A DNA stretch of 64,000 nt, taken from an uncultured Christensenellaceae bacterium (GTDB taxonomy: Bacteria > Bacillota > Clostridia > Christensenellales > UBA3700). How positions within the stretch are numbered: position 1 is the first letter of the stretch; every line of letters starts with the position of its first letter. Below are positions 11,065 through 61,377 of this stretch, piece after piece. The notes beneath the pieces were generated by a model. That model saw only the letters and a program-made list of their open reading frames with translations, made no database searches and had not been told where the DNA came from. The position numbers and the translations under genes were made by a program. The stretch is taken from positions 214,739 through 278,738 of the forward strand of contig CALWHJ010000001.1 in NCBI GenBank assembly GCA_944380355.1, read 5' to 3'.

Positions 11065-11781
11065 ATGTTTAATAGAATTATGGAAGTGTTGTTAGGTGTT
11101 TTGATGGCGGTTTGCCTTGTAATGGGCGTTCTTAAAAGCTACTGTCGCAACAAAGAATATCTCGAATACGAACTGCTCTTCAAAACTTGCGGTTCGTTGA
11201 GTTTCGTATGTCTGGGCATTCTGGCTTTTTATATCTCGGGTACGGACAATATACAATATGCGCTGGCTGTAATAATAGCGCTCGTACTCGGACTTTTGGG
11301 CGATATCTTCTTGTGCCTTTACGATATAATCGTAATACCCAAACACAAAGACTTCGTGCAGTATGTCGGCGTAACGTTCTTTTTCCTCGGACATATATGC
11401 TATATGTTCAATTTCCTCTCGCTCGCGCCGCTCAAACTCTATCTTATTCCTTTCGTCATAATAATGCCTGCGATTTATCTCGTACTCGCTCTTACGAAAA
11501 AGGTAAAGACAAATACTCTTCAAAACGTATTTCTTACTATTTATTTTCTTGCACTGAATCTGATACTGCTCTCTTCCATAAACTTGATAATCGTAAGAGA
11601 AGATACGGTATTCCCTATTCTGGTGCTCATTGCAAGCACGCTGTTTATATCGTCGGATATAGTACTCGGACTTTCGTGGTTTGCCCCCTCGGCAAAACTG
11701 CATAAAAACTACGACCTCTATGTCATACTCAGCTACTTTGCGGCACAATGCATATACGCTATATCAATATACTTTGTATGA
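11065..11781 (+). CDS. YhhN-family membrane protein (lysoplasmalogenase family)
   Basis: 238-aa ORF with about 8 TM segments. It has the two half-repeat motifs typical of YhhN/TMEM86 (LLGDIFL and FISSDIVLG). Confidence 0.55.
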   Translation: MFNRIMEVLLGVLMAVCLVMGVLKSYCRNKEYLEYELLFKTCGSLSFVCLGILAFYISGTDNIQYALAVIIALVLGLLGDIFLCLYDIIVIPKHKDFVQYVGVTFFFLGHICYMFNFLSLAPLKLYLIPFVIIMPAIYLVLALTKKVKTNTLQNVFLTIYFLALNLILLSSINLIIVREDTVFPILVLIASTLFISSDIVLGLSWFAPSAKLHKNYDLYVILSYFAAQCIYAISIYFV

Positions 11782-11807
11782 GTATGATTGCTCCCCGACA
11801 CAACGAA

Positions 11808-11833
11808 AAGACGCCTCAAGGGCGTCTTTTTTT
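11808..11833 (+). terminator. intrinsic terminator
   Basis: Stem gacgcc/ggcgtc followed by a run of seven T. Confidence 0.7.
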
Positions 11834-11898
11834 AACCAAATTATAAACTGTTTATCTTATAAGCAGTCAAGCTCGACAGGTTAACTAACCGAAAATCC

Positions 11899-12210
11899 CT
11901 ACCGCCGAGAAGGGGTGCGAAATAGACTGTAAGCAGTGAATTTTGCGATGCTTTGTTGTACCGCTAGCGAGCGGTGCGGATAAGATTTGAGACGCGCATC
12001 TTACGGCTGTTATTTTGTTGAGGCACTTGACAATACGGCAAGTATTGCCGTCGCACCTCGCCGCATAACAACCGCAATCTGCTACTCTCAAATTGCAAGC
12101 CCCGTATTACGGCTTATCCTTACCGCTTCTTATCGGCAATGCGAAAGGAAGAAGTAATACTTGCTGTATTACGATGACGCAGAATTGAAAAGCGGAAACG
12201 CAGAATTGAC
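11899..12210 (+). repeat. copy 1 of a dispersed ~0.3-kb hairpin-rich noncoding element (5' arm plus core, no 3' arm)
   Basis: Aligns almost base-for-base with 46584-46880. It contains nested helices and has no conserved ORF. Confidence 0.8.
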
Positions 12211-12225
12211 ATATATATAAACTCA

Positions 12226-12576
12226 GTACCGCCGAGAAGGGGTGCGGGCTAGGCTGTAAACAACAGATTTTCCGATAATTTGCTTTGAGAAGGACTAAAT
12301 AATACTTAATTCACATACCAGGTACCGCCGAGAAGGGGTGCGAAATAGACTGTAAGCCGTGGATTTTGCGTTTTGTATTTAAGTAAAGTCCAACAGAATT
12401 AATAACAAAACCCGTACCGCCGAGAAGGGGGGCGGGCTAGGCTGTAAACAACAGTTTTTCCGATAATTTGCTTTGAGAAGGACGAAGTAATACTGGATGT
12501 ATTATGAGGACGCCGAAACGCAAATTACGGAAAAGATGCGTTTAGAGACAGCCCGCATCCCCTTCGAGGCGGTACC
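12226..12576 (+). repeat. tandem array of three further 5'-arm modules, ending in a 163-bp mini-element with inverted terminal arms
   Basis: The module gtaccgccgagaaggggtgcg starts at 12226, 12322 and 12414. The inverted partner agcccgcatccccttcgaggcggtacc lies at 12550-12576. Confidence 0.8.
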
Positions 12577-12578
12577 AA

Positions 12579-12899
12579 TCACATATACGCCACGCCCATT
12601 GAGAACAACGCCAGATAGCATATCAGCACAAGCAATATGACCATTAACCAGATTATAAATCCGTAAATAGCGTTTCTTGCAAGAACTTTTGAAAAGACGG
12701 GATAAGTCTTTCTGAAACAAAAACTGACTATAAGCCCCACAAAAGGCAACAATATCGCGGTCAACACAAGATACCTTGCCAAGTGAATATTGACAAGTTC
12801 TCTCGACTTTGTGTTGGGATTGTAGAGTTGCTCGCCGCAGTAAGGACAAATCACCATATCTTTATCCACTTCTCTGCCGCATTTGGGACACTGATTCAT
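12579..12899 (-). CDS. zinc-ribbon membrane protein of unknown function
   Basis: 106-aa ORF with an N-terminal CPKCG...CPYCG zinc ribbon followed by two hydrophobic helices. Confidence 0.55.
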   Translation of the reverse strand: MNQCPKCGREVDKDMVICPYCGEQLYNPNTKSRELVNIHLARYLVLTAILLPFVGLIVSFCFRKTYPVFSKVLARNAIYGFIIWLMVILLVLICYLALFSMGVAYM

Positions 12900-20472: not shown

Positions 20473-22791
20473 TTATACGTCGTATTTAGACAGTATCTCC
20501 ACGGGCGTCTTTCTCGTAAACGACAATATCGGCAACAGCGATACTATCATCATACAGCCTGCAATACCCGCTATCGCCGTAAAAAACAGCCACAGGGGGA
20601 AGTACAAAAGCGTGCCGTCGGAGAATATAAGTACAGGCAATCCTATCACGACGAATACCGACACTACGCATATCAGTATAAGCGCGAGAGATTCGACGAA
20701 AAATTTGTATACGATATTCTTTGTCGATACGCCTATTGCTCTGTAAAGTCCTATCTCCTTGGCTTTGCCGGACAATGCCGAATAAAACATCAGTGCCGCC
20801 GACACAAGCATAATCGCTATCAGTATAGCAACTACTATTACGAATTTTATTATTTCTTCCTTTACTTCGTCCATAGCTTGCTTATACATTATATTTTTGG
20901 TCTTTATGTTTGAAAACATGCCTGTCTCAATCAATGTGTCCGCAAGTTTGTTTGCGTCTGGAGTAAGTATGCAGTATTCTCTGTAATTTTCGAATCTGTC
21001 TTCAAGCGCACGCATTTCGTTTTCGTTGATTACCCAACCGATTACTTTGTCGGAATTTCTGACAACGAATTTTTTTCCGAATATATCGACTACTCTTCCG
21101 TCTTCGTAATTCCATCCCGGTGATAAAAGTACCTCGCCGTCTTTAGCTTCTTCTCCGAAGTAACTGTCGGGGGAATATCCGAAAATTACGTCAATCCAGA
21201 GCAAATCCTCCATATAAGCGTACGATTCGTCCTCGTCCACTACGCCGACTATCTTGACGGTCTTTGTTCTGTCCATCTTTACGGTCGCGTTGTAAAGTAT
21301 CTCATAGCCTACGCCGTTTACTTTTGCTTCGTGAAGCCAGCTGGAGAGAATATCGTCGGCAAGTCCCTTGCTTATGACAATCCTGTCGTAAGCCGTCAAA
21401 TCGTCGGGAGTGCCGTATATCCATTTCATATTTTTTACCTTTTCGATATCGTTGAAAGTATAATCCAAGAATGACCAGTATATAGTTTCGAGTGTCTCGA
21501 ATCCAGCAATACCGACTTCCATACGCGACGAAAAGTTGCTTACGTAAGCGTACTCCACATCGTAGCCTTTTTGGGCGATTATATTATCGACTTCCTTTTT
21601 ATCGCTTGCTCCGTTTACGGCGACTCTAATCAGATTTTCATTAAAATCGCTGCCGATATTATCGTATTTAAAAATCTTCGAACCGAGTACACCTACAAAA
21701 ATAACGATTGCTATCATAAACACAAAGACAGATACCGTAAAAAGAGTAAATCTCTTCTTTTTGTTGAATATCGACTTCACGCCCGACACAAACGCGCTTT
21801 TGAAAGAGAATACCTTACCCGTCTTGCCCGTCTGCACATTGCTGAGAAAATTCATCGCACCGTGCGCCTTGACGCGTTGTTCTTCCAAAAACTCCTTTTC
21901 CGTCTTGTCTTCGAATTTTATCTCCGACTTCTCGTCGATTAGCCTTACGTTTTTGTCAGTCGTCTTGAGATAAATCTTTCCGCCTTCGTTGACAAGCATC
22001 AGATTTACGGGCAAAGCTTCGCCGTAATAGTCTATGTTTACGTTGTCTACGGTAAGTCTGTTTTTCTTTTTGTCTCCGAGAAAAACTCTCGTCTTGTCGG
22101 ACGTACCGTGAGAGATTTTTCCTCCCTCGCTGAGATTTTCTATCCTGCCGTCCTTTATCTGTATTACGCTGTCGGCATACTTCTCTATCAAATCGCCTTC
22201 GTGCGTTACCACTATCACAAGACAGTTGGTACTCAATGCCTTCAACAGCTCCATTACCGTTCGAGTGTTCAGCTCGTCAAGATTGCCCGTCGGCTCGTCC
22301 GCAAGTATTATCCTGGCTCCCTTGACCATTGCTCGCGCTATCGCTACTCTCTGCTGCTGTCCTCCCGACAGCGTTGTCACGTTGCGCTTGTAATAGTCCC
22401 TCATTCCTACGTTATCGAGTGCAGTCATTACCCTGTCGAATATAACCTCTTCGTCCTTTACTCCGACAGTTCTCAGTCCCTGCGCTACGTTTTGGTATAC
22501 GTCCAGTCTTTCGTCCAGAAGATAGTTCTGGAATATATACCCTATATTCTCTATCCTGTACTTATCGTCTACGCTGCTCTTGTAGACGTTGCCGTTCATT
22601 ATTATCTCTCCGCCGTCGAATTTGTCCAATCCGCCCAGCGCGTTCATAAACGTAGTCTTTCCCGAACCGCTCGCACCGTATATGGCTACAAGTCCTTTCT
22701 CGGGAAACTCCACGCTCACGTCGTTGACGGCGCGTACTTCGTTTGCCTTGTTCTTGTTGAAAATCTTGAGAAGATTGTTAACCTTTATCAT
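20473..22791 (-). CDS. fused ABC transporter ATP-binding domain plus FtsX-type permease (MacB-like architecture)
   Basis: 772-aa ORF. N-terminal Walker A (GASGSGKT), signature (LSGGQQQR) and Walker B (ILADEPT). A TM helix and a large extracytoplasmic region follow, then a C-terminal FtsX-like 3-TM bundle. Confidence 0.8.
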   Translation of the reverse strand: MIKVNNLLKIFNKNKANEVRAVNDVSVEFPEKGLVAIYGASGSGKTTFMNALGGLDKFDGGEIIMNGNVYKSSVDDKYRIENIGYIFQNYLLDERLDVYQNVAQGLRTVGVKDEEVIFDRVMTALDNVGMRDYYKRNVTTLSGGQQQRVAIARAMVKGARIILADEPTGNLDELNTRTVMELLKALSTNCLVIVVTHEGDLIEKYADSVIQIKDGRIENLSEGGKISHGTSDKTRVFLGDKKKNRLTVDNVNIDYYGEALPVNLMLVNEGGKIYLKTTDKNVRLIDEKSEIKFEDKTEKEFLEEQRVKAHGAMNFLSNVQTGKTGKVFSFKSAFVSGVKSIFNKKKRFTLFTVSVFVFMIAIVIFVGVLGSKIFKYDNIGSDFNENLIRVAVNGASDKKEVDNIIAQKGYDVEYAYVSNFSSRMEVGIAGFETLETIYWSFLDYTFNDIEKVKNMKWIYGTPDDLTAYDRIVISKGLADDILSSWLHEAKVNGVGYEILYNATVKMDRTKTVKIVGVVDEDESYAYMEDLLWIDVIFGYSPDSYFGEEAKDGEVLLSPGWNYEDGRVVDIFGKKFVVRNSDKVIGWVINENEMRALEDRFENYREYCILTPDANKLADTLIETGMFSNIKTKNIMYKQAMDEVKEEIIKFVIVVAILIAIMLVSAALMFYSALSGKAKEIGLYRAIGVSTKNIVYKFFVESLALILICVVSVFVVIGLPVLIFSDGTLLYFPLWLFFTAIAGIAGCMMIVSLLPILSFTRKTPVEILSKYDV

Positions 22792-25124
22792 TTGTTTGCC
22801 CTCCTCAATCCTTTTCTTATCTTTTGTTTGTATATAAGCTTATTGTACGAGCCTGCCAGAATCAGCAGTATTATCGTCATTCCCAGTACTATCATAAATA
22901 CCGCTTCCCAGCCCATATATTGAAGTACCGCACCTATAGGAGCAAAGTACATAATCAATACCAAAATCACGCACAAAATCAGTGCTGGTACAAGTGCTAA
23001 AAACAGCTGTACGAAAGTCGACGCTTTGACTGTCGAATCGGCAATACCCATAGTCCTGAATACCGACACGTCTTTTCTGCCTAGCGACATAAGTTTTATG
23101 AGCGTAACTACCACAACAAGAGATACTGCTACCGAGAAGGCAAGACTTATGAGCGTCGTGGAAAAGAAGTCGATTAGTTTTTCGATAAAGGAAAGATTTG
23201 ACATAATATTAATATCCCTGGCGCGTATGGAACTGTAACCGTCACGCGTCATTTTATCGACTGCCACACTCGCTTTTTTGTTGTTTTCAAAGATAAGCGA
23301 TATCTGCTTACTCTCTTCGGTAAAATAATCTTTGAATACCTCAGGACTTACGCTGAAAACTATGCAAGAAGCATCGTAAAGCGAAGATATAAAGGGCTTT
23401 AAATCCTCATTGTATTTTACGTCCGTAAAAAGCACTGCCGCAGATACTGCTTTTCTTATATAAAGTCCCTCGTTGTTATCTATCAACGCATTGGTTTCCA
23501 CAACCTTGCCTTGCAAATCGAAGTTAATCTGAAATACCGCGTCTTTCATATAACGGCTGTCTAAGAAATTGCCTTCCTCGTCCTCGATTACGGGAAAACC
23601 TTCTGCGTCAACCTCGACTATCGCGCCGCTCAAAGGAGGTAAATTCAGCCTCTGAAACTGAGAATAATACTCGTATCCTTCCGTTGTAAAGCACGCAGTC
23701 ACGGGCTTTCTGTTGTCGACATAATAATCAATACCCGAGATGACGTAAACCATACCCTGATTGTTTGTATCGTCAACTCTGGAATCGTAATTTACGTTGA
23801 ACATCTCAAGCTTTTGACCTACGCTGTACTCTTTTGCGTAATTGTAAGGAATACGAAGCAATACCTCGTCGGCTCTTTGGGGCAGCCTGCCCTTGTCTGC
23901 TTTTTTGCCGTCAAGCCTATCCAAGCGGAAATATTCAAAATTTTTGACAGTATCTCCTTCCATTACCACGAGCGCGGATGCGTCGAAATAGATATCGTGC
24001 ATAATAAAGGACGATGCTCCGTATTTATCCGCAAGCTCTTGCGCGCTTTGCTCGGTGTAATAATCGTCGCGGGTAGCGACCCCGTTACGCTGTTTAACGT
24101 CGTCGTGTCCACTTTGCTCGGTGTAATAATCGTCGCGGGTAGCGACCAGTACTCTGCCTTCCATATCGTTGACAGCGAAAGTTACAGGATAAAATCCCAG
24201 GTTGCTCACCAAGGATATGGAAAGAATAATACCGCTTAGCGCGATAAACAAAACAACAGATATCAGAATATTCTGTCTAGGACGGGTGCAAAACCTCTTC
24301 CAGCCCAGTATGAACTTATCTCTCGCGTCAGTACGTCTGTCTTCTTTTGAACGCTTGCTTTTTTTGCGACGCGTTTTGAAAACGTACTGTCTTTCTTTTT
24401 CGTAAAGACCTTCCCTCTCCTCTACGTCTTCGGAGCTTTTTACTCTCTCGAAAATTTCGTCGCTTTCAATTCCGCCGTCATATACGCGAATATGCCTGGT
24501 TGCGTATTCCTTAACGTCCTCGTAATTGTGCGTTACCACTATCACGAGCTTGTCTTTAGACACCTCTTTCAAAAGTGCGAGTATGCTCTTTGCGTTGACG
24601 CTGTCAAGATTGCCCGTAGGCTCGTCTGCCAGTATGACGGGACTGTCTTTTGCTATCGCTCTCGCGATGACCGTTCGCTGTTTCTCGCCGCCCGAAAGCT
24701 TAACCCCTTTTGTGTTGAGTCTGTCCTTCAGTCCTACTCTTTCGGCTATCTCCAGCGCACGACGTTTTCTCTCTTTAAGGTCCTTGACCGACGTCAATGC
24801 AAATTCAATATTCTCGAATACCGTAAAGCTTTCGAGTATGTTGTAGTCCTGAAAAATAAAGGACACGTACTTTGCCACGTATTCGTCCCAGTCGGCCTTT
24901 ATGTAATGAGAAGTGGGCTTGCCCTCTATATACATCTCCCCTTCTTCATAGCTGTCAAGTCCGCCTATTACGTTGAGAAGCGTGGTTTTACCGCTTCCCG
25001 ACTTGCCCGTAACCGCGACGAATTCTCCTTTGTCAAAAGACAAATTTACTTTGCGTATACCGACTGCTACGTTGTTTTCGCTAGAGTAAATCTTGCCTAT
25101 GTCAGACAATCTCAAAAATGCCAT
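22788..25124 (-). CDS. fused ABC transporter ATP-binding domain plus FtsX-type permease (paralogous partner)
   Basis: 778-aa ORF with GKSGSGKT, LSGGEKQR and ILADEPT, and the same downstream architecture. Its stop overlaps the start of the downstream gene by 4 nt. Confidence 0.8.
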   Translation of the reverse strand: MAFLRLSDIGKIYSSENNVAVGIRKVNLSFDKGEFVAVTGKSGSGKTTLLNVIGGLDSYEEGEMYIEGKPTSHYIKADWDEYVAKYVSFIFQDYNILESFTVFENIEFALTSVKDLKERKRRALEIAERVGLKDRLNTKGVKLSGGEKQRTVIARAIAKDSPVILADEPTGNLDSVNAKSILALLKEVSKDKLVIVVTHNYEDVKEYATRHIRVYDGGIESDEIFERVKSSEDVEEREGLYEKERQYVFKTRRKKSKRSKEDRRTDARDKFILGWKRFCTRPRQNILISVVLFIALSGIILSISLVSNLGFYPVTFAVNDMEGRVLVATRDDYYTEQSGHDDVKQRNGVATRDDYYTEQSAQELADKYGASSFIMHDIYFDASALVVMEGDTVKNFEYFRLDRLDGKKADKGRLPQRADEVLLRIPYNYAKEYSVGQKLEMFNVNYDSRVDDTNNQGMVYVISGIDYYVDNRKPVTACFTTEGYEYYSQFQRLNLPPLSGAIVEVDAEGFPVIEDEEGNFLDSRYMKDAVFQINFDLQGKVVETNALIDNNEGLYIRKAVSAAVLFTDVKYNEDLKPFISSLYDASCIVFSVSPEVFKDYFTEESKQISLIFENNKKASVAVDKMTRDGYSSIRARDINIMSNLSFIEKLIDFFSTTLISLAFSVAVSLVVVVTLIKLMSLGRKDVSVFRTMGIADSTVKASTFVQLFLALVPALILCVILVLIMYFAPIGAVLQYMGWEAVFMIVLGMTIILLILAGSYNKLIYKQKIRKGLRRANK
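24046..24147 (-). repeat. in-frame 66-bp-period tandem duplication inside the ABC/FtsX gene
   Basis: The 36-nt string ctttgctcggtgtaataatcgtcgcgggtagcgacc occurs at 24046-24081 and 24112-24147. It encodes VATRDDYYTEQS twice. Confidence 0.9.
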
Positions 25125-46311: not shown

Positions 46312-46583
46312 AAAAAAATCCCTCCTTTTTATTGCAATTATATTATATGCTCACTGCTCTTCAAAGTCAATTATTTACAAAAAAATTAATTACGTTTAAT
46401 CCGAAAACGGCAAAATCTAACAAAAAATCCCTGCGCTAATAGCTGAGCAAACCAAACTGCAGGCAGCGTTTTGCAAAAGATTTTCAAAGTCGCAAAAGCG
46501 CGAAAACGCGGAACCGGGAGGTAATAATAAAAATGTCCGCTTACCTTTGCAGGCAAGACGGATAGAATAATTAGCCAAAAATC

Positions 46584-46931
46584 AGTACCGCCTAGAAGGG
46601 GTGCAAACTAGGCTGTAAGCCGTGGATTTTGCGATGCTTTGTTTGTACCGCTACTCAAAGGCGCGGATAATATTTGAGAGGCGCATCTTTGGGCTGTTAT
46701 TTTGTTGAGGCACTTGACAATACGGCAAGTATTGCCGTCGCACCTCGCCGCATAACAGCCGCAATCTGCTACTCTCAAATTGCAAGCACCGCTTTATACG
46801 GCTTATCCTTACCGTTTCGTATCGGCAACGCGAAAGGAAGAAGTAATACTTGCCGTATTACGATGACGCCGAATTGAAAAGCGCGGAAAAGACACGCTCA
46901 CAGCCAGCGAGCACTCCTACGAGACGGTACT
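46584..46931 (+). repeat. copy 2 of the dispersed hairpin-rich noncoding element (complete, with both arms)
   Basis: Near base-for-base match to 11899-12210. The terminal arms 46584-46604 and 46911-46931 pair at 18 of 21 positions. Confidence 0.8.
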
Positions 46932-48236
46932 AAACCACTCGTCGTATTCCTCTGCGCTTATTTCGGGGCGCGAATCGAATATGCTGCCGAAATTTTCTAT
47001 TCTCTCTTCGCGCAAAGATTCAATTTTAGATACGACTTCGTTATATAACGTAACGAGTTCGTCCTTAATTTTTGTGTACAACTCGCTGTCCACAAGATTT
47101 ACATAATCTAGAATAACGTTTATCACTATGCTATCGGCAATGCCGTTTTTTATCTCGCCTAAAAGATTTCTGATATCTTCTATTATGTTGTATTTGATAA
47201 GATAAGCGTCCAAAGCCAGTATGCTCGAAACCGTAATATCGTACTCGAGAAGCTGCTTTCTCACTTCGTCGGCCTGAGCAATAAGCTGTTTGACATTATC
47301 GGAAAGACTTGCTCCCCAGATTATGCTGTCCGCCATCAGTTTGCAATCCCAGTAATTTTTACCGCTTTCCTTTTCTATCTCGGTATTAAGCTCGTCGAGT
47401 CTGTCCAAAAGCACATTGATATTTTCCAGTCTTTCTACAAAAGCGTCTACCTCGGTAAGGATATCGTTGAGAGCTCCTCCGCCGATACTCCCCGCTCTGT
47501 AATAGATGAACTCGTTTTTTATATCTTCAATATAAGAATCAATCTTATCGCCTACGTATTGCCAGCCTTTTCCGTGGACAAATTCTTCGACGGCATAAGT
47601 AGTAGCACTGACTATACCGAATATGTCAATTTCTTTGAGATAATTCTGCAAGCTAGAAGCCGTTTGCTTTGCAAGACGGTTGACTTTTGAGGATTTCTCG
47701 CCGCTTATGACGCTGACATTGATTTTATTGTCTTTAGCGGTACAGTCTATAAACCCCAGCTTAGCCGATTCGAGAATAAACGTCTGCATACACTCCTCTG
47801 CATTCATATCGGTATAATTGTCAAAAGCCTTGCCCGACAGCACTATATCCGCATCCTCGTTTTGCGCGGCAATATGAATGACGTTTCCGTCCTTGTCCGC
47901 AGTAATCAATACGGAAGGATTTATGTCAACCTCGTAGCAGGTCGTTTCCAACGTCACTACGGGCTGATTGGACAGATTGGTAAAGTATACTCCGCACACG
48001 CTTGCTGCTATAACGACCACAAGTATGCTTGCCACTACGCTGACCCACGTAATTATCGTTTTTTTGTTCTTTACAGCAGTACTGTTTTTGCCGAATGACA
48101 AAGACTTCTTTTTGTCGGTTTCGGGAAAATAGTTGTCCTTAGTATTGATAGGAGTAGAGAGTATCTTTTTAGTGAGTTTGGGCGTCTTCTTATCCAAACT
48201 CATATTCAAAAGATTTTGAATATCTTTCTTTTTCAT
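46917..48236 (-). CDS. single-pass membrane protein co-transcribed with the ECF sigma factor (putative anti-sigma factor)
   Basis: 439-aa ORF whose start overlaps the sigma gene stop (ATGA). It has a short cytoplasmic N-terminus, one TM helix (WVSVVASILVVVIAASV) and a large extracytoplasmic region. The role is inferred from context only. Confidence 0.45.
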   Translation of the reverse strand: MKKKDIQNLLNMSLDKKTPKLTKKILSTPINTKDNYFPETDKKKSLSFGKNSTAVKNKKTIITWVSVVASILVVVIAASVCGVYFTNLSNQPVVTLETTCYEVDINPSVLITADKDGNVIHIAAQNEDADIVLSGKAFDNYTDMNAEECMQTFILESAKLGFIDCTAKDNKINVSVISGEKSSKVNRLAKQTASSLQNYLKEIDIFGIVSATTYAVEEFVHGKGWQYVGDKIDSYIEDIKNEFIYYRAGSIGGGALNDILTEVDAFVERLENINVLLDRLDELNTEIEKESGKNYWDCKLMADSIIWGASLSDNVKQLIAQADEVRKQLLEYDITVSSILALDAYLIKYNIIEDIRNLLGEIKNGIADSIVINVILDYVNLVDSELYTKIKDELVTLYNEVVSKIESLREERIENFGSIFDSRPEISAEEYDEWFSTVS

Positions 48237-52872: not shown

Positions 52873-53418
52873 ATGAACTGGTATGACGAAGTAAAACTCA
52901 ATCTCAAAAAAAAGCGGGCAATACTTTTCTCTAAGTCGAGCGAGTGTCTGTTGCCCTTGCAAAGTCAGCTCGAAGATACCGACAAAAGGACGGCGGTATT
53001 GTGGTCGCTTTATTTTGCCGAAGAAGCGTTCAATTTACTGTCTGCCCGATATCCCGACGAAAGCGCGCCTTGCGACGCACTCGCGCTTACTAAGTTGTGG
53101 GCACAGGGCAAAGTCAAAATGCCTGAGGCAAAAAGAGCTATACTCGAGTGCCACGCAATGGCAAAACGATTGTCTTCTCCCGAAGATATTGCGCTTTGTC
53201 ACGCAATCGGTCAAGCGTGCGGCTGCGTGCACGCAAAGGGGCACGCAATAGGTTTTCCTGTATACGAATTGACCGCTATCGTAAGAAGATACGGCATCGA
53301 AGCCTGTAAAGACGCGATAGAAAGACGACTCGACGAATATCGGGAAAAACTACTTGAGTTAAACTCCTCTCGCCAAGCCGATAAGTATGAGTGGGCAAAG
53401 TTTTTAAAATCAAACTAA
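52873..53418 (+). CDS. all-alpha protein resembling Imm5-like putative immunity proteins
   Basis: 181-aa ORF. The pattern (AEEAFNLL...P.D..P..AL...KLWAQGKV....AKRAILECHAMAK......A..HAIGQA...VH...HA) recalls that family from memory only. No search was run. Confidence 0.3.
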   Translation: MNWYDEVKLNLKKKRAILFSKSSECLLPLQSQLEDTDKRTAVLWSLYFAEEAFNLLSARYPDESAPCDALALTKLWAQGKVKMPEAKRAILECHAMAKRLSSPEDIALCHAIGQACGCVHAKGHAIGFPVYELTAIVRRYGIEACKDAIERRLDEYREKLLELNSSRQADKYEWAKFLKSN

Positions 53419-56556: not shown

Positions 56557-58206
56557 TTATTTACTGAAAACGTAAGTCGCTATCGAATTGGCGGGTATCG
56601 TTACGCTTCCCGTATTCGAGTATTCGCTTGTCTTCCAGTTTTCCTCTTCGGTAGTGAGTATCTCTGTTACGTTGGCGTATCCGCCCTCGATATTAATTTT
56701 GTGGCTTCTAGAGCTGTCGTTGATTACTACCAAAGCTATACTGCCGTCAGTCTTCTTGAATGCTACGCACTCCACTCCGTTGAATGCCAAAGTATCGCTG
56801 TAACTTGCGTCTATTCTTACGCTTCCCGACTCGATAAACTTGGAGAAGTGACCCATTGCGTAATATCTTTTATAGCTTTTGATTACGTCTTGTCCGTCCA
56901 CGTTGTTCCAGTATATAAGTCCGTCTTCGTAATCTCCCTTGGATATAGAAAGCCAGTAATTCCAGTTGACGGCGTCAAGCATAGCCAAATCGCGCATAAT
57001 TACCTGAGCCGAGAAAATACCCATATCCATAGTGGGGTCTACGCCGAATTCGAGTACGCAATACTCGGTAATGCTTATCTTGAGGTCGGAATAGTATTTA
57101 TCCATATATTCCGAGAAGAGCGTACGGTGGAATTTAGAGGTATCTGCGCCGTAGGAATGTGCGGATATGTTGGTAACGCTTTCAAAGAAAGGATATTTTT
57201 CAAACTCCGTCATATACTCGTTTACTCTTGCGGAAGATGCAACCATCATATACTTTCCGCACTCGAATATATCCATTTCGAAGTTTGTGCCGTTGGTCTC
57301 GTTGAACGCATTCAGCGTGGTATAGAATTGCTGATAGAATTTTGCGAGAGCTTCGGGCTCGTAGTGACAACCCTCTTGCGTAGCGCCCTCGCCGCCCCAC
57401 TTCCATTGAGGCTCGTTGACGGGGCTGATTATTACCTTGATATCCTTGTCGTACTTGCAGATTATGTTTTCGTACAAATAATCCGTGATTACCATAAGAT
57501 AATCGCTGAACGCTTCGTAACACTCCTCTTTGAGATTGTCGACATTGATTTGCTCGCCGTGAGTCTTGCCGTTGAGGGTCATCGTATAGTGAGGCGAATT
57601 GGCAAAGAATACTACCTGCTCGATATTGCCCTTGGAAAGCGCGAGCTCGAAAAGTTCTCTCACCGCGGCATCCTTGGTAAAATCGTAATTGGACGCGTCC
57701 TTGAATACAGAGTAATCTCCCTTGAAGTTTTCGGCTACGAAAAAGCTCTCCGCTCCTCTCAATTCGTCTCCGTAAGAAGCGACTTCGATACCGCCTCCGC
57801 CGATATTGTATCTAAAGGTATTGAGTTTAAGCCCGCTGTCCCCGTAAAGCATTTCCATTGCCTGTTCTTTGATTTGGGGATTGTCGAGTTTTCCGAAGTC
57901 CTGATAAATCCACGCGGACGACGCACCGAAACCTTCCATTGTCTGATAGGTCTTGCTCTCGTCGAGAGTTATGGTCGTAGTGCCGTATATTACTGCCGCC
58001 GAATATATTCCGAAAAACGCACCGAGCGCAACCACTACCGACAACACTACCGCTAAAGCGATGACGAGCTTTTTCTTGCGCGGCATACCCTTTTTGCCTG
58101 CAGGCTTTTGCTCGACGTCTGCACCGATTGCGGTGTTTTCTTGCGTCTGCAAAGTATCTGGGTGAGTTTCGCTGACTGCTTCAATCTGCTTGTTTTCTTC
58201 TTTCAT
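56557..58206 (-). CDS. membrane-anchored clan GH-A glycoside hydrolase, GH30-like (paralog 1)
   Basis: 549-aa ORF. An N-terminal hydrophilic region and a TM anchor precede MEGFGASSAW. It has the acid/base NEP (SPVNEPQW), the nucleophile context SITEYC and a C-terminal beta-sandwich-like region. Confidence 0.6.
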   Translation of the reverse strand: MKEENKQIEAVSETHPDTLQTQENTAIGADVEQKPAGKKGMPRKKKLVIALAVVLSVVVALGAFFGIYSAAVIYGTTTITLDESKTYQTMEGFGASSAWIYQDFGKLDNPQIKEQAMEMLYGDSGLKLNTFRYNIGGGGIEVASYGDELRGAESFFVAENFKGDYSVFKDASNYDFTKDAAVRELFELALSKGNIEQVVFFANSPHYTMTLNGKTHGEQINVDNLKEECYEAFSDYLMVITDYLYENIICKYDKDIKVIISPVNEPQWKWGGEGATQEGCHYEPEALAKFYQQFYTTLNAFNETNGTNFEMDIFECGKYMMVASSARVNEYMTEFEKYPFFESVTNISAHSYGADTSKFHRTLFSEYMDKYYSDLKISITEYCVLEFGVDPTMDMGIFSAQVIMRDLAMLDAVNWNYWLSISKGDYEDGLIYWNNVDGQDVIKSYKRYYAMGHFSKFIESGSVRIDASYSDTLAFNGVECVAFKKTDGSIALVVINDSSRSHKINIEGGYANVTEILTTEEENWKTSEYSNTGSVTIPANSIATYVFSK

Positions 58207-58231
58207 ATCTTTTCCCTTCTATTCACCGTTT

Positions 58232-59761
58232 TTATTTTGACAAAACGTAAGTAGCTATAGATTTTGCAGGGATAGTAACGTCTGCGCCCTTTTCGTACTC
58301 ATTGCTCTTCCAGTTGTTTTCCGCGTCGGTATAAGTCTCCTGCACGTTGTACGCGCTTCCGAAGTTGACCTTGCTCGCGTCAGAATTATTGATGATTACA
58401 ACGGTTACGGTACCGTCGGGATTTTTGAAAGCTGCTCCCTCGAGGTCGCGTGAATTCACACTGCTTGCAAAACTCAAATCAACTCTTACGCTTCCCCTCT
58501 GTACAAACTTTGAGAATTGTCCCATTGCGTAGTATCTCTTTTCTGCGCTCAGACTTTCTTCTCCGTCCGCAGCGTTCATATTCCAGTTGACCAGACCGTC
58601 CTCGTAATCGTATACGGATACGGACAGCCAGAAGTTCCAGCATATAGCGTCAATCATAGTCAAGTCGCGCATTATTACGGTAGCAGAGAACAATCCCATA
58701 TCTATCGAGGAGTCGATACCTCCCTGCATTACGCAGTACTCGGTAACGCTGACCTTAAGGTCGGGATAATTCTCGTCCATAAACTTGCTGAAATTGTTAC
58801 GTATTCTCTCTTCCGTATCGGCTGAATACGAGTGTACGGAGATATTGGTAATACTATCGAAGAAAGGATATTTTTTGAATTCTGCCAAATAATTCTTTAC
58901 GCTGGCAGTGAGATAGTTACCGCTCTCGAAAATATCCATTTCGAAAGACGTGCCGTTGGCGGTGTTGTAGGCGTTGAGAGTGGTATAAAATTGCTGATAG
59001 AATTTCGCCAGCTCTTCAGGCTCGTAGTGACAGCCCTCTTGCGTAGCGTTCTCTCCGCCCCAGTCCCACTGAGGTTCGTTGACGGGACTGATTATTACTT
59101 CGATATTCTCGTCATACTTGCAGATTATGTTTTCGTACAAATAATCCGTGATTACCATAAGATAATCGCTGAACGCTTCGTAACACTCTTCTTTAAGATT
59201 GTTCTGCTGCTCTACTGCTCCGTGCGTCTTACCGCTCACGGTCATTGTGTAGTAAGGAGAATTGGCAAAAAATACGACTCTCTTTATGTTGCCCTTGGAA
59301 AGCGCGAGCTCGAAAAGTTCTCTCACTCCCTCATCGCGCGTAAAATCGTAATTGTCCGCGTCCTTGAATACAGAATAATCTCCCGTAAAATTCTCGGCTA
59401 CGAAATAGCTTTGAGCTCCTCTCAAAGGGTCTGGGTATCCCGATACCTCTGTACCGCCTCCGCCGATATTGTATCTGAAAGTGTCGAGCTTGAGTCCGCT
59501 GTCGCCGTATAGCATTTCCATTGCCTGCTCTTTGACTTCTTCGTCCTCAATTGCTCCCAGCGCCTGATAGGTCCATGCGGACGACGCGCCGAAACCTTCC
59601 ATTGTCTGGTATGTCTTGTCGGTATCTACAATTGCTGTCGCACCGTCGTTTGTGTTGTTGTCGCAAGCGACAAACAATGTACCTATAGCGAGTACCGTTA
59701 CGGTCAAAAGCGCAATCGCGATTGCAGTCTTTTTAGTAAAATACATTTTTCCTTTTTCCAT
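58232..59761 (-). CDS. GH30-like glycoside hydrolase lipoprotein (paralog 2)
   Basis: 509-aa ORF with a signal peptide and lipobox (LFVAC). It has the same catalytic motifs (VNEPQW, VTEYC). Confidence 0.6.
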   Translation of the reverse strand: MEKGKMYFTKKTAIAIALLTVTVLAIGTLFVACDNNTNDGATAIVDTDKTYQTMEGFGASSAWTYQALGAIEDEEVKEQAMEMLYGDSGLKLDTFRYNIGGGGTEVSGYPDPLRGAQSYFVAENFTGDYSVFKDADNYDFTRDEGVRELFELALSKGNIKRVVFFANSPYYTMTVSGKTHGAVEQQNNLKEECYEAFSDYLMVITDYLYENIICKYDENIEVIISPVNEPQWDWGGENATQEGCHYEPEELAKFYQQFYTTLNAYNTANGTSFEMDIFESGNYLTASVKNYLAEFKKYPFFDSITNISVHSYSADTEERIRNNFSKFMDENYPDLKVSVTEYCVMQGGIDSSIDMGLFSATVIMRDLTMIDAICWNFWLSVSVYDYEDGLVNWNMNAADGEESLSAEKRYYAMGQFSKFVQRGSVRVDLSFASSVNSRDLEGAAFKNPDGTVTVVIINNSDASKVNFGSAYNVQETYTDAENNWKSNEYEKGADVTIPAKSIATYVLSK

Positions 59762-59838
59762 CTTCCTCTCCGTTTGTTTTAATATTGTAAGTAACGCGCT
59801 TTATGCAAAACGCTTAATAATTTTTACCGTTTAAAATT

Positions 59839-61377
59839 TCACTTGGTGAATATGTAAGTTGCTATCGAATTGGCGGGGATAGTTATACTTCCCGTATTTT
59901 CGTATTCGCTTGTCTTCCAGTTTTCCTCTTCGGTAGTGAGTACCTCTGTTACGTCGGCGTATCCGCCCTCGATATTGATTTTGTGACTTCTCGAGCTGTC
60001 GTTGATTACTACCAAAGCTATACTGCCGTCAGTCTTCTTGAATGCTACGCACTCCACTCCGTTGAATGCCAAAGTATCGCTGTAACTTGCGTCTATTCTT
60101 ACGCTTCCTGCCTCAACAAACTTTGAAAATTGTCCCATTGCGTAATATCTCTTTTCTGCACTGAGACTTTCTTCTCCGTCCGCAGCGTTCATATTCCAGT
60201 TGACAAGTCCGTCCTCGTAATCGTATACGGATACGGACAACCAGTAATTCCAGCTTACCGCGTCAATCATAGTCAAATCGCGCATTATTACCTGAGCCGA
60301 ATACAAGCCCATATCCATAGACTTATCTATGCCGCCCTCGAAAACGCAGTACTCGGTAACGCTGATTTTAAGGTCGGGATACTTTCTGTTCATATAGTTG
60401 TCGAAAAGCGTACGCAAAAGCTTATCCGTGTCCGTGCCGTAAGAATGTACGGATATATTGTCGAGACTTTCAAAGAAGGGGTACTCTGCAAACGCCTTCA
60501 TATACTTGTCAAAGCGCGTACCCGAATCGCCTATGAGTTTATAGTTACCGCTCTCGAAAATATCCATTTCGAAAGACGTGCCGTTGGCGGCGTTGTAGGC
60601 ATTGAGAGTGGTATAAAATTGCTGATAGAATTTCGCCAGCTCTTCAGGCTCGTAGTGACAGCCCTCTTGCGTAGCGTTCTCTCCGCCCCAGTCCCACTGA
60701 GGTTCGTTGACGGGACTGATTATTACTTCGATATTCTCGTCATACTTGCAGATTATGTTTTCGTACAAATAATCCGTGATTACCATAAGATAATCGCTGA
60801 ACGCTTCGTAACACTCTTCTTTAAGATTGTTCTGCTGCTCTACTGCTCCGTGCGTCTTACCGCTCACGGTCATTGTGTAGTAAGGAGAATTGGCAAAAAA
60901 TACGACTCTCTTTATGTTGCCCTTGGAAAGCGCGAGCTCGAAAAGTTCTCTCACTCCCTCATCGCGCGTAAAATCGTAATTGTCCGCGTCCTTGAATACA
61001 GAATAATCTCCCGTAAAATTCTCGGCTACGAAATAGCTTTGAGCTCCTCTCAAAGGGTCTGGGTATCCCGATACCTCTGTACCGCCTCCGCCGATATTGT
61101 ATCTGAAAGTGTCGAGCTTGAGTCCGCTGTCGCCGTATAGCATTTCCATTGCCTGCTCTTTGACTTCTTCGTCCTCAATTGCTCCCAGCGCCTGATAGGT
61201 CCATGCGGACGACGCGCCGAAACCTTCCATTGTCTGATATGTCTTGCTCTCGTCGAGAGTAATAGTCGTAGTGCCGTAGATTACCGCAAGCGAATATATT
61301 CCGAGAGCCGCGCCTACTACAAGCACGACTATCAAAAGTCCGACAAGCGTAACCAACGCTACCTTTTTTCTGTCCAT
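59839..61377 (-). CDS. membrane-anchored GH30-like glycoside hydrolase (paralog 3, mosaic of 1 and 2)
   Basis: 512-aa ORF. The ends resemble paralog 1. The ~695-bp core is nearly identical to paralog 2. Confidence 0.6.
   Translation of the reverse strand: MDRKKVALVTLVGLLIVVLVVGAALGIYSLAVIYGTTTITLDESKTYQTMEGFGASSAWTYQALGAIEDEEVKEQAMEMLYGDSGLKLDTFRYNIGGGGTEVSGYPDPLRGAQSYFVAENFTGDYSVFKDADNYDFTRDEGVRELFELALSKGNIKRVVFFANSPYYTMTVSGKTHGAVEQQNNLKEECYEAFSDYLMVITDYLYENIICKYDENIEVIISPVNEPQWDWGGENATQEGCHYEPEELAKFYQQFYTTLNAYNAANGTSFEMDIFESGNYKLIGDSGTRFDKYMKAFAEYPFFESLDNISVHSYGTDTDKLLRTLFDNYMNRKYPDLKISVTEYCVFEGGIDKSMDMGLYSAQVIMRDLTMIDAVSWNYWLSVSVYDYEDGLVNWNMNAADGEESLSAEKRYYAMGQFSKFVEAGSVRIDASYSDTLAFNGVECVAFKKTDGSIALVVINDSSRSHKINIEGGYADVTEVLTTEEENWKTSEYENTGSITIPANSIATYIFTK

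Follow-up and report, generated by a model that had tools for sequence, protein, structure and literature searches.

An array of direct repeats at 11899-12575 in a 64-kb stretch of DNA from an uncultured Christensenellaceae bacterium (contig CALWHJ010000001.1; the whole stretch is referred to as the window) appears to be one allele of an undescribed family of non-coding hairpin repeats, found so far only in uncultured gut Christensenellaceae. A complete element is best read as a leader module (U1 or U2), a 5' rod strand, an interior and a 3' rod strand, and the two rod strands would pair with each other on the sense strand. Among bacterial interspersed hairpin repeats, the family is set apart by a polarity rule, by periodic G.A loops and by a lock to one replication strand. 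The preferred explanation is a non-autonomous, modular and recombining hairpin repeat, comparable to BOX elements, REPINs (hairpin-forming doublets of repetitive extragenic palindromic (REP) sequences) and miniature inverted-repeat transposable elements (MITEs), whose sense strand is constrained as a single strand, with the constraint placed at the level of DNA. We consider this explanation to have about an even chance of being correct. A previous sequence-only reading of the array had missed that it belongs to a dispersed, modular and hypervariable family.

Organization of the Array at Locus 1

The element is present at two places in the window, locus 1 (array at 11899-12575) and locus 2 (long form at 46585-46930). 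As the reference for BLAST and alignment, window positions 46585-46932 were numbered q1-348; the complete long element itself comprises 346 nt (46585-46930). Short forms of about 160 nt are called minis, and the covariance model R1 was built from minis only. Comparison sequences from other strains and species carry L labels (L002, L095, etc.).

The 5' arm starts with GTACCGCCGAGAAGGGG and occurs in four direct copies at locus 1, at 11899, 12226, 12322 and 12414, with start-to-start distances of 327, 96 and 92 nt. The sequence-only reading had recognized these four modules and the spacings of 96 and 92, and only its first start (11900) had to be moved. The 21-mer GTACCGCCGAGAAGGGGTGCG matched the plus strand at all four starts (with one mismatch each at 11899 and 12414) and at 46585, i.e., five times in the window as compared to 0.01 matches expected from shuffles. 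Two subtypes alternate, as had been proposed: alpha (GCGAAATAGACTGTAAGC) at 11899 and 12322, and beta (GCGGGCTAGGCTGTAAAC) at 12226 and 12414, the beta units being 92% identical across 88 nt. The sole inverted arm at locus 1 lies at 12554-12575; a separate, diverged 3' arm belongs to the copy at 46585. The features of locus 1 are:

11806..11833, plus strand: intrinsic terminator of the YhhN-family gene (AAAAGACGCC..GGCGTCTTTTTTT), left limit of the inserted array
11848..11898, plus strand: degenerate U1-like leader by comparison with other U1 modules, a small hairpin followed by TCGACAGGTTAAC and an A-rich tail; precedes the first 5' unit
11899..12194, plus strand: unit 1, a long copy with an alpha 5' rod strand that ends just before the 3' rod strand (corresponds to q2-299)
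11985..12094, minus strand: nested inverted hairpin relative within unit 1 (R1, 21.4 bits)
12195..12225, plus strand: AT-rich U2 linker (GAAACGCAGAATTGACATATATATAAACTCA), which takes the place of the 3' rod strand between units
12226..12321, plus strand: unit 2, a beta 5' rod strand and a decayed half apical hairpin, lacking the 3' rod strand
12322..12413, plus strand: unit 3, an alpha 5' rod strand (49 nt), lacking the 3' rod strand
12414..12575, plus strand: unit 4, a beta mini and the only complete element at locus 1 (q1-56 joined to q245-348)
12579..12899, minus strand: gene for a zinc-ribbon membrane protein of 106 aa (Pfam Zn_ribbon_3 and DUF7575)

Unit 1 is 90.6% identical to 46585-46932 over 298 nt (BLAST). 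The other parts of the array recur as well, the unit 2 type in L002, L004 and L015, the unit 3 type twice in L003, and U2-type linkers at other loci and in other genomes (L013, L018, L093, L095, L002, L015 and L012). Unit 3 carries an unrelated hairpin of its own (GTTTTGT..ACAAAAC, 12370-12411). The terminator at 11806..11833 is ancestral and common to both genes of the convergent pair; related species whose sites are empty or nearly so (L106, L108 and L110) possess its homologue.

Unit 4 is composed of the 5' rod strand (about 12414-12473), the apical hairpin (12487-12505) and the 3' rod strand (about 12519-12575). A mini-element with a single inverted partner had been described here before, and this holds with an end at 12575 and a length of 162 nt instead of 12576 and 163 bp. 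Its pairing is not confined to terminal arms of 25/26 nt, as had been assumed, since 61 pairs run along the whole length of the mini (dG of -81.1 kcal/mol; R1 score of 176 bits). The GTAATAC-N5-GTATTA hairpin was indeed kept (12487-12505, 12154-12172 and 46843-46861), and closure by G.U is a feature of 4 of the 14 minis. The stop codon of the zinc-ribbon gene (TGA, 12579-12581) adjoins the 3' arm end (12575) with a gap of 3 nt rather than 2 nt.

The Sense Strand Folds into a Rod Punctuated by G.A Loops

In an alignment of 14 complete minis (A2), 97.5% of the pair cells were paired. Double-sided changes were found at 11 of 53 pairs as compared to 7.2 ± 1.1 in shuffles, and the covariation score of 0.160 (versus 0.090) was reached by none of 500 shuffles. 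Many of these pair changes separate the alpha from the beta lineages and, hence, represent few independent events. The rod consists of short Watson-Crick helices with tandem G.A loops between them. On the plus strand, there are five 2x2 loops with 5'-GA-3' opposite 5'-GA-3', located in the following columns of A2:

Columns 9-10 with 164-165: GA/GA loop in 14/14 minis
Columns 21-22 with 151-152: GA/GA loop confined to the alpha subtype, with GG opposite CC in three beta minis
Columns 41-42 with 122-123: GA/GA loop; 5' side GA or AA in 12/14, opposite side GA in 12/14
Columns 62-63 with 102-103: GA/GA loop; 5' side in 12/14 (2 gapped), 3' side in 14/14
Columns 68-69 with 96-97: GA/GA loop in 14/14 minis

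The GA/GA loops were kept across the alpha, beta and type-B lineages while adjacent pairs covary. GA opposite GA at 12422-12423/12567-12568, which had been noticed from the letters of the window, proved to be real and invariant in all 14 minis. Unpaired rod columns contained purines in 39 and pyrimidines in 12 cases. Arm alignments of 16 complete units yielded 218 purine-purine mismatches (157 G.A/A.G, 44 A.A and 17 G.G) and 47 pyrimidine-pyrimidine mismatches, and G.U cells outnumbered A.C cells by 23 to 7. The plus strand gave a more stable fold than the minus strand in 17 of 17 mini and type-B copies, with an advantage of 5-18 kcal/mol; exceptions were confined to the nested-composite long forms and a single remnant of 66 nt. 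Since the nested inverted copy shows the same asymmetry on its own strand, it belongs to the element and not to the local base composition. For the region 11897-12578, folding gave -234.8 kcal/mol (z = -8.7) for the plus strand and -218.8 kcal/mol (z = -6.4) for the minus strand, so that the reading of a plus-strand fold withstood the refuting condition set by the sequence-only reading, i.e., a plus strand no better than the minus strand or shuffled sequence. Thus, the element is supported as a strand-asymmetric single-strand fold and not just a DNA inverted repeat. A kink-turn was rejected as an interpretation of the tandem G.A loops, which lack an adjacent 3-nt bulge.

The proposal that the plus strand is a folded RNA was upheld as regards the strand only, by the GA loops, the G.U excess and the covariation. 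Tandem G.A and G.T are tolerated in RNA and DNA alike, and for this reason the fold evidence cannot separate RNA from single-stranded DNA (ssDNA).

Many 5' Units Share One Last 3' Strand

A script listing of 27 alleles revealed one to four direct 5' units and exactly one 3' strand, which was always last; L110, with zero 5' units and one 3' strand, was the one exception. The ends of upstream units fall into a stretch of about 12 nt immediately ahead of the 3' rod strand, and U2 or U1 comes next. In the non-terminal 5' units, nt 1-17 were conserved to 94% and nt 18-50 to 65%, and because of this difference the 17-nt box seems to be constrained on its own. Nested insertion was discarded as the origin of the arrays, since a second 3' arm would be expected behind the last one and none was seen.

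It is conceivable that the arrays grow like integron cassettes, i.e., that non-coding units of leader, 5' strand and interior are added singly next to the fixed 3' strand by strand-specific, site-specific recombination of the folded strand, as known for attC and attI. This would suit the strict polarity with one last 3' strand behind many 5' units, and also the clustering of unit ends within a zone of 12 nt behind AAAGCGCGG(AAAA), with members of a conserved linker family coming next. Moreover, the terminal arm is built as a box, a 2-nt unpaired spacer and a box (GTACCGCC-GA-GAAGGGG), the folding strand would be on the leading-strand template like the attC bottom strands of sedentary integrons, and identical units are found at different loci, with only 1 nt differing between the L095 mini at locus 2 and the window mini at locus 1. 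However, neither the window nor the inspected flanks contained an integrase or recombinase, the breakpoints are not at a single exact nucleotide, the attC core GTTRRRY is absent from the arms, and homologous recombination between copies could shift units without a special enzyme. Cassette-like growth is, on balance, regarded as quite improbable.

The Long Form Contains a Nested Inverted Relative

Locus 2 of the window carries the long form with both rod strands, and its features are:

46537..46584, plus strand: U1 module, hairpin CCGCTTACC-TTTGCA-GGCAAGACGG followed by TAGAATAATTAGCCAAAAATCA
46585..46930, plus strand: complete long-form element of 346 nt with both rod strands
46647..46802, minus strand: nested inverted hairpin relative within the long form (R1, 24.6 bits, full model length)
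46917..48236, minus strand: RsgI-like anti-sigma gene (Pfam RsgI_M)

Since the mini-only model R1 matched the interiors of both long copies on the opposite strand, the long form is interpreted as a mini with a nested, inverted relative inside. In the interior, the minus strand folded with -63.8 kcal/mol and the plus strand with -52.3 kcal/mol; for unit 1 of locus 1, the values were -66.9 and -47.8 kcal/mol, respectively, with purine-rich loops on the minus strand. The apical loop of the nested relative (GGCAA on the plus strand) is complementary to that of its host element (TTGCC). Nested and host hairpins could kiss, or pair as an alternative duplex of 15 bp (12032-12046/12156-12170, 93% complementary).

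At locus 2, the final four codons of the RsgI-like gene and its TAG stop codon (46917-46932) are encoded by the 3' arm. The C-terminus reads ..EWFSTVS* in the window versus ..EFLSSVR* in the element-free relative L103. In L095, a different arm lacks that stop, and the RsgI-like protein has 459 aa as compared to 439 aa.

Distribution and Classes of the Family

At least 11 family loci were found in three species represented by metagenome-assembled genomes (MAGs) plus the window. In a pattern scan with one genome per species, the module was seen only in three uncultured Christensenellaceae MAGs, one of which has at least eight loci. All copies stem from a few related MAGs, so that the counts overstate independence. 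The size classes, i.e., the 346-nt long form, the minis of about 160 nt and the 189-nt type B, have the same arms, and type B shares only these arms and an AATAC-N5-GTATT hairpin with the other interior classes. The terminal inverted repeats (5' end GTACCGCCGAGAAGGGG.., 3' end ..CCCCTTCGAGGCGGTAC) extend over about 50 nt with fixed mismatches. The end tetranucleotide is GTAC, with the rare variants CTAC and GTAG (11899; L020).

The U1 leader has the general form of a hairpin CCGCTTACC..GGCAAGWCGG followed by AYAGAATAA and an A-rich tail, and is also present upstream of units in L002, L095, L099, L016, L017, L020, L014, L019 and L011. It is a repeat in its own right, and the variation in its stem includes both G.U-type and A.C-type changes. 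By its sequence, U1 could serve as a minus-strand terminator (hairpin and U-run) or as a weak plus-strand promoter. U2 is a family of AT-rich linkers of about 30 nt ending in ..TATAATATTAAC(C)TCA.

The family was not recognized in existing collections. The window gave no match to Rfam 15 at the gathering score, and a search of 11700-12800 at E<=10 returned chance-level matches only. A scan of the window for tRNA and tmRNA found none, and the phage and plasmid collections held no match to the element. When Joint Genome Institute (JGI) metagenomes were scanned with a 17-mer, 71 matches were obtained, one of them on a viral contig; since none combined a 5' and a 3' arm in the arrangement of the element, they were treated as chance. 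No description was found in the literature on the element sequence or on Christensenella repeats. Coding potential was dismissed, as there are only short unconserved open reading frames and the GUG..UAA mini-frame of the 5' strand is broken in several copies. Repeats of type III toxin-antitoxin systems and CRISPR were likewise set aside because of unit size, context and the lack of partner genes. The genes next to the MAG arrays, which by reading of their translations we take to encode sigma factors, a TypA/BipA-type GTPase, an aminopeptidase and an alpha-galactosidase, are presumably not mobility genes.

Alleles Are Reshuffled within Fixed Junctions

Orthologous contigs were chosen for encoding an identical zinc-ribbon protein and an identical 111-aa protein. 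Both window loci proved to vary in the number and type of units among strains whose flanks are 96-99.5% identical. At locus 1, their alleles comprise one to four units between flanks that are 98.7-100% identical, and include the arrangement of the window, another four-unit array (L002) and a three-unit array ending in type B (L003). Several orthologous contigs stop inside the array, no farther than about 100-400 nt from the zinc-ribbon gene, which would be the effect of repeats that break short-read assembly. In L002, L005, L007 and L112 (orthologues of 12568-12590), GGCGGTACCCATCAC is present twice as a 15-nt tandem duplication where the 3' arm meets the zinc-ribbon stop, and L007 and L009 show further 3-nt variants.

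At locus 2, where the flanks are 96-98% identical, the alleles include the long form in the window, a mini of 161 nt at the same junctions in L099, two units in L093 and L094, and three units in L095. All of them have the right-hand junction GGCGGTAC/TAAACCACTC in common, and L097 has a chimeric 3' arm. Unit number varies between strains while the arm pairing is conserved; random unit number without conserved arm pairing had been named in the sequence-only reading as a sign of simple slippage. The fast reshuffling of alleles inside fixed outer junctions is consistent with dispersed copies undergoing ectopic recombination or gene conversion.

In related species, locus 2 is empty in L103-L105 (RsgI 73-51% identical), with 190-240 nt containing a canonical terminator. 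Locus 1 is empty in L106 and L107, where 49 nt hold only a bidirectional terminator, and in L108 (150 nt without an element). At locus 1 of L110, the 3' rod strand is kept along with some of the interior, while a 5' strand is missing. In L111 (GCA_965305465.1), a degenerate arm (CCCCTTTTTTTGGCGGTAC) follows a long pyrimidine-rich tract at locus 1. On account of the empty sites with terminators, the elements are insertions in intergenic DNA directly after genes, which have displaced native terminators and gene ends, including the last codons of one gene.

Replication slippage on a palindrome without any constraint, with the regularities resulting from recent shared ancestry, might also be invoked. 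The differences in copy number between strains, the 15-nt tandem duplications at the junction and the close relatedness of many copies, because of which the counts are not independent, speak for it. However, the GA/GA loops persist across alpha, beta and type B while flanking pairs covary, the rules of polarity and orientation apply to independent loci of different genomes, and the same linkers are found at different loci. Slippage without constraint is considered highly improbable.

In 6 of about 10 loci, the 3' arm adjoins or overlaps the stop of a gene on the minus strand. This position, together with the replacement of the canonical terminator of element-free relatives by element and U1 at locus 2, could mean that the element acts in the minus sense as the 3' untranslated region (UTR) of the upstream gene, with the rod or the U1 hairpin and a U-run terminating or protecting the mRNA and extra units being back-up terminators. 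On the minus strand, U1 reads CCGTCTTGCC-TGCAAA-GGTAAGCGG followed by ACATTTTTATT, and the A-rich tracts before the 5' units are U-rich tracts after the rod. REP sequences, bacterial interspersed mosaic elements (BIMEs), BOX and ERIC elements have been reported as terminators or mRNA stabilizers (PMC3049150), i.e., to act likewise. However, the structure is optimized on the other strand: minus-strand loops are tandem U.C mismatches, and the minis are weaker by 5-18 kcal/mol. The U-tracts begin 2-4 nt past the stem and some are poor, the rods were not called by the terminator scan, and the orientation is the same in L014, L019, L020, L015 and L011b, which have no upstream minus-strand gene. A minus-sense role is judged unlikely.

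Orientation Follows the Replication Strand

When sequences were oriented by the element, the total GC skew was negative in 12 of 12. In the window, plus-strand genes had a skew of -0.023 and minus-strand genes one of -0.106, which leaves a coding-independent component of about -0.064; the third-position skew agrees with a negative replication component. This component was negative in all eight loci having both gene orientations, although weakly so at L016 (-0.009). Each contig showed one orientation: CASERZ010000005 (three loci with four arrays), CASERZ010000002 (two) and the window (two). In L014, L019 and L020, the element lies 11-20 nt before the ribosome binding site and ATG of a plus-strand gene (in L014 and L019 presumably a TypA/BipA-type GTPase, from its N-terminal sequence), and the orientation was unchanged. 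The same was true for L014, L019, L020, L015 and L011b with respect to the missing upstream minus-strand gene. Element orientation, therefore, appears to be tied to the replication strand rather than to transcription. The G.A-bearing strand would be the C-rich lagging-strand sequence, i.e., the leading-strand template.

Since the orientation is locked to the replication strand, a constraint at the DNA level is favored over an RNA switch. In the latter model, which is that of the sequence-only reading, the plus strand is a structured RNA in which the 5' strands compete for the one 3' strand, and the mutually exclusive helices act as a switch or regulator. The conserved and favored plus-strand fold with its tandem G.A loops and G.U excess is in line with this model, as is the minimum free energy structure of 11897-12578, in which the 3' strand pairs with the unit at 12226 and not with the nearest unit. 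The four competing 5' partners that had been proposed did not stand: pairing energies with the 3' strand were -75.8 kcal/mol for 12226 and -74.1 kcal/mol for 12414, but -48 and -58 kcal/mol for the alpha units. Because only the nearly isoenergetic beta units pair well, competition would be between two good partners. Further points in favor are the 94% conservation of nt 1-17 in non-terminal 5' units, a weak promoter-like pair in U1 (TTACCT or TTGYCT, 16-17 nt, TAGAAT or TAAAAT) and the position in the 5' leader of a plus-strand gene in L014, L019 and L020. However, a scan found no sigma-70-like or consensus plus-strand promoter before the units and no terminator after the 3' arm, and sigma-70 promoters in the linkers were rejected as they gained no support from the scan. 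At both window loci, the plus strand is antisense to or convergent with the neighbors, and no Rfam family matched. It would be unusual for a family of RNA genes to face replication head-on throughout. Finally, unit number and type are free to differ between near-identical strains and single-unit alleles are common, which argues against a tuned switch. An RNA switch is, accordingly, thought to be unlikely, to about the same degree as the minus-sense role.

Each 5' box contains GAGAAGGG (11907-11914, 12234-12241, 12330-12337 and 12422-12429), which is the recognition octamer of Bacillus subtilis SpoIIIE. GAAGAAG, the FtsK-orienting polar sequence (KOPS) heptamer of Lactococcus lactis (PMC3384302), is found in the apex region of alpha-type and long units (e.g., 46833-46845; the locus 1 apex is at 12474-12486). 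Because the arms differ (GA versus TC), the octamer is confined to the sense strand, and elsewhere in the window it occurs zero times on the plus strand and once on the minus strand. A role as a SpoIIIE/FtsK guide motif was rejected, since at all loci both sequences would be on the lagging strand, i.e., in the non-permissive orientation; this was taken as a polypurine coincidence. With the elements masked, the 7-mers CTCTCCC (14 versus 0) and TGCTCTC (17 versus 0) favored the plus strand of the window. GGGAGAG and GAGAGCA on the leading strand are, by these counts, candidates for a polar guide motif of the organism.

Proposed Origin of the Arrays

On the preferred explanation of a recombining hairpin repeat constrained as single-stranded DNA, dispersed copies would recombine or convert ectopically, and direct 5' units would exchange unequally to give arrays of one to four units. 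The same reshuffling could generate long and mini forms at one site as well as nested inverted copies. The 17-nt terminal box and the G.A-punctuated rod may be recognized, or needed, as a single strand of either ssDNA or RNA. Insertion or survival would be tied to the replication fork, and the leading-strand template would carry the folding strand. That several 5' units occur with a single 3' strand could result from polar copying or recombination, or from purging of internal 3' strands. Effects on the host may be side effects, such as a big hairpin in the 3' or 5' UTR of a neighbor, terminator loss and changed C-termini.

Several points weigh against this explanation. First, no transposase, recombinase, autonomous copy or parent insertion sequence (IS) was found in the window and the inspected 8-kb flanks; the 64-kb window is also devoid of reverse transcriptase, integrase and RAYT genes and contains only ordinary chromosomal housekeeping genes. 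Second, no known transposition mechanism accounts for arrays of many 5' units with a single 3' strand. Third, a target-site duplication was not definable when flanks were compared with the empty sites of related species (the GTAC ends could hide a TA duplication). Within the species, an empty site was not encountered, and the movement of the element is, for that reason, deduced rather than observed. Fourth, the direction of replication was derived from the GC skew and gene bias of short contigs and not from a mapped origin. Fifth, the active strand of ssDNA transposons of the IS200/IS605 type is on the lagging-strand template (PMC6006769), opposite to the G.A-bearing strand of the element, if that is the active one. 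Sixth, the G.U excess and covariation suit RNA equally well.

A more specific possibility is that the arrays record polar, replication-strand-specific assembly on a folded single strand, in which units are added or copied next to one fixed 3' strand, and the rod and the 17-nt box are the recognition structure. This is viewed as rather improbable. If true, it would imply a cassette-like or copy-choice mechanism without a known enzyme and, hence, a new way to build bacterial repeat arrays.

Comparison with Known Repeat Systems

The element lacks at least one defining feature of REP/REPIN, BOX, attC, IS200/IS605 derivatives, Rfam families and riboswitch-type attenuators. It is similar to BOX of Streptococcus pneumoniae (boxA-(boxB)n-boxC) in being composed of non-coding intergenic modules whose end modules pair into a stem, with a tandem part that varies in number between strains and insertions that modify neighboring genes or transcripts (PMC3049150). 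In contrast to BOX, which is defined by a variable internal tandem module without ends, the tandem unit here includes the 5' end module, so that the 5' arms multiply and the 3' arm stays single. A resemblance to BOX at the sequence level was neither expected nor seen. To our knowledge, tandem G.A loops and a replication-strand lock are not features of BOX.

REP, BIME and REPIN sequences, which are mobilized by RAYT (TnpA-REP) Y1 transposases, are abundant extragenic palindromes in mosaic clusters (PMC6006769), and the element resembles them in this respect. A REP sequence combines a short self-folding hairpin with a GTAG or GTGG tetranucleotide placed 0-2 nt 5' of it, and the REPIN doublet is the likely mobile unit, processed as ssDNA (PMC6006769). 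The element ends in GTAC instead, with CTAC and GTAG as variants reminiscent of REPINs, and its 5' arm has no hairpin of its own but pairs only with the distant 3' arm. BIMEs alternate in orientation, whereas the arrays described here are direct.

MITEs such as Correia, ERIC, RUP and Nezha are also small, non-coding and dispersed, with terminal inverted repeats, variable presence and nesting, and are co-transcribed with neighbors as stable hairpins. Terminal inverted repeats were found here, and so were dispersal and varying presence (at least eight loci in one MAG; L103-L108 empty). Unlike in MITEs, the ends are non-identical (GA versus TC at five sites), the arrays are polar and there is a replication-strand lock.

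The attC sites of sedentary chromosomal integrons resemble the element as imperfect palindromes that act as one folded strand with paired boxes and an unpaired spacer. However, the element has no GTTRRRY core and no coding cassettes, its units being non-coding, and no integrase or attI was found in the 64-kb window. Each attC site keeps both arms, whereas here only the last unit has both. Palindromes derived from IS200/IS605 share strand specificity, hairpin dependence, coupling to replication and a strong orientation bias (PMC6006769), but have separate subterminal hairpins and no terminal inverted repeat, while the ends of the element pair together. As to riboswitches or attenuators, the element is not in a same-strand 5' leader at either window locus, and no terminator follows the 3' arm.

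Hairpin repeats of the REP, BOX and MITE type shape bacterial genomes and transcripts, and their mobility is mostly unexplained. The host of the present family is an abundant, heritable and hard-to-culture gut lineage. Together, polarity, G.A loops on one strand and the replication lock point to a strand-specific, single-strand mechanism. The arrays are hypervariable strain markers that break short-read assemblies, and they rewrite gene 3' ends, such as that of the anti-sigma factor in the window.

Other Features of the Window

Apart from the two repeat loci, the window contains three tandem paralogous GH30 glycoside hydrolase genes (56557-61377, minus strand) and a gene for an Imm5-like immunity protein with no obvious toxin partner (52873-53418, plus strand). 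Two adjacent genes (20473-25124, minus strand) encode ABC-ATPase proteins of about 775 aa, the first of which has an FtsX permease domain.

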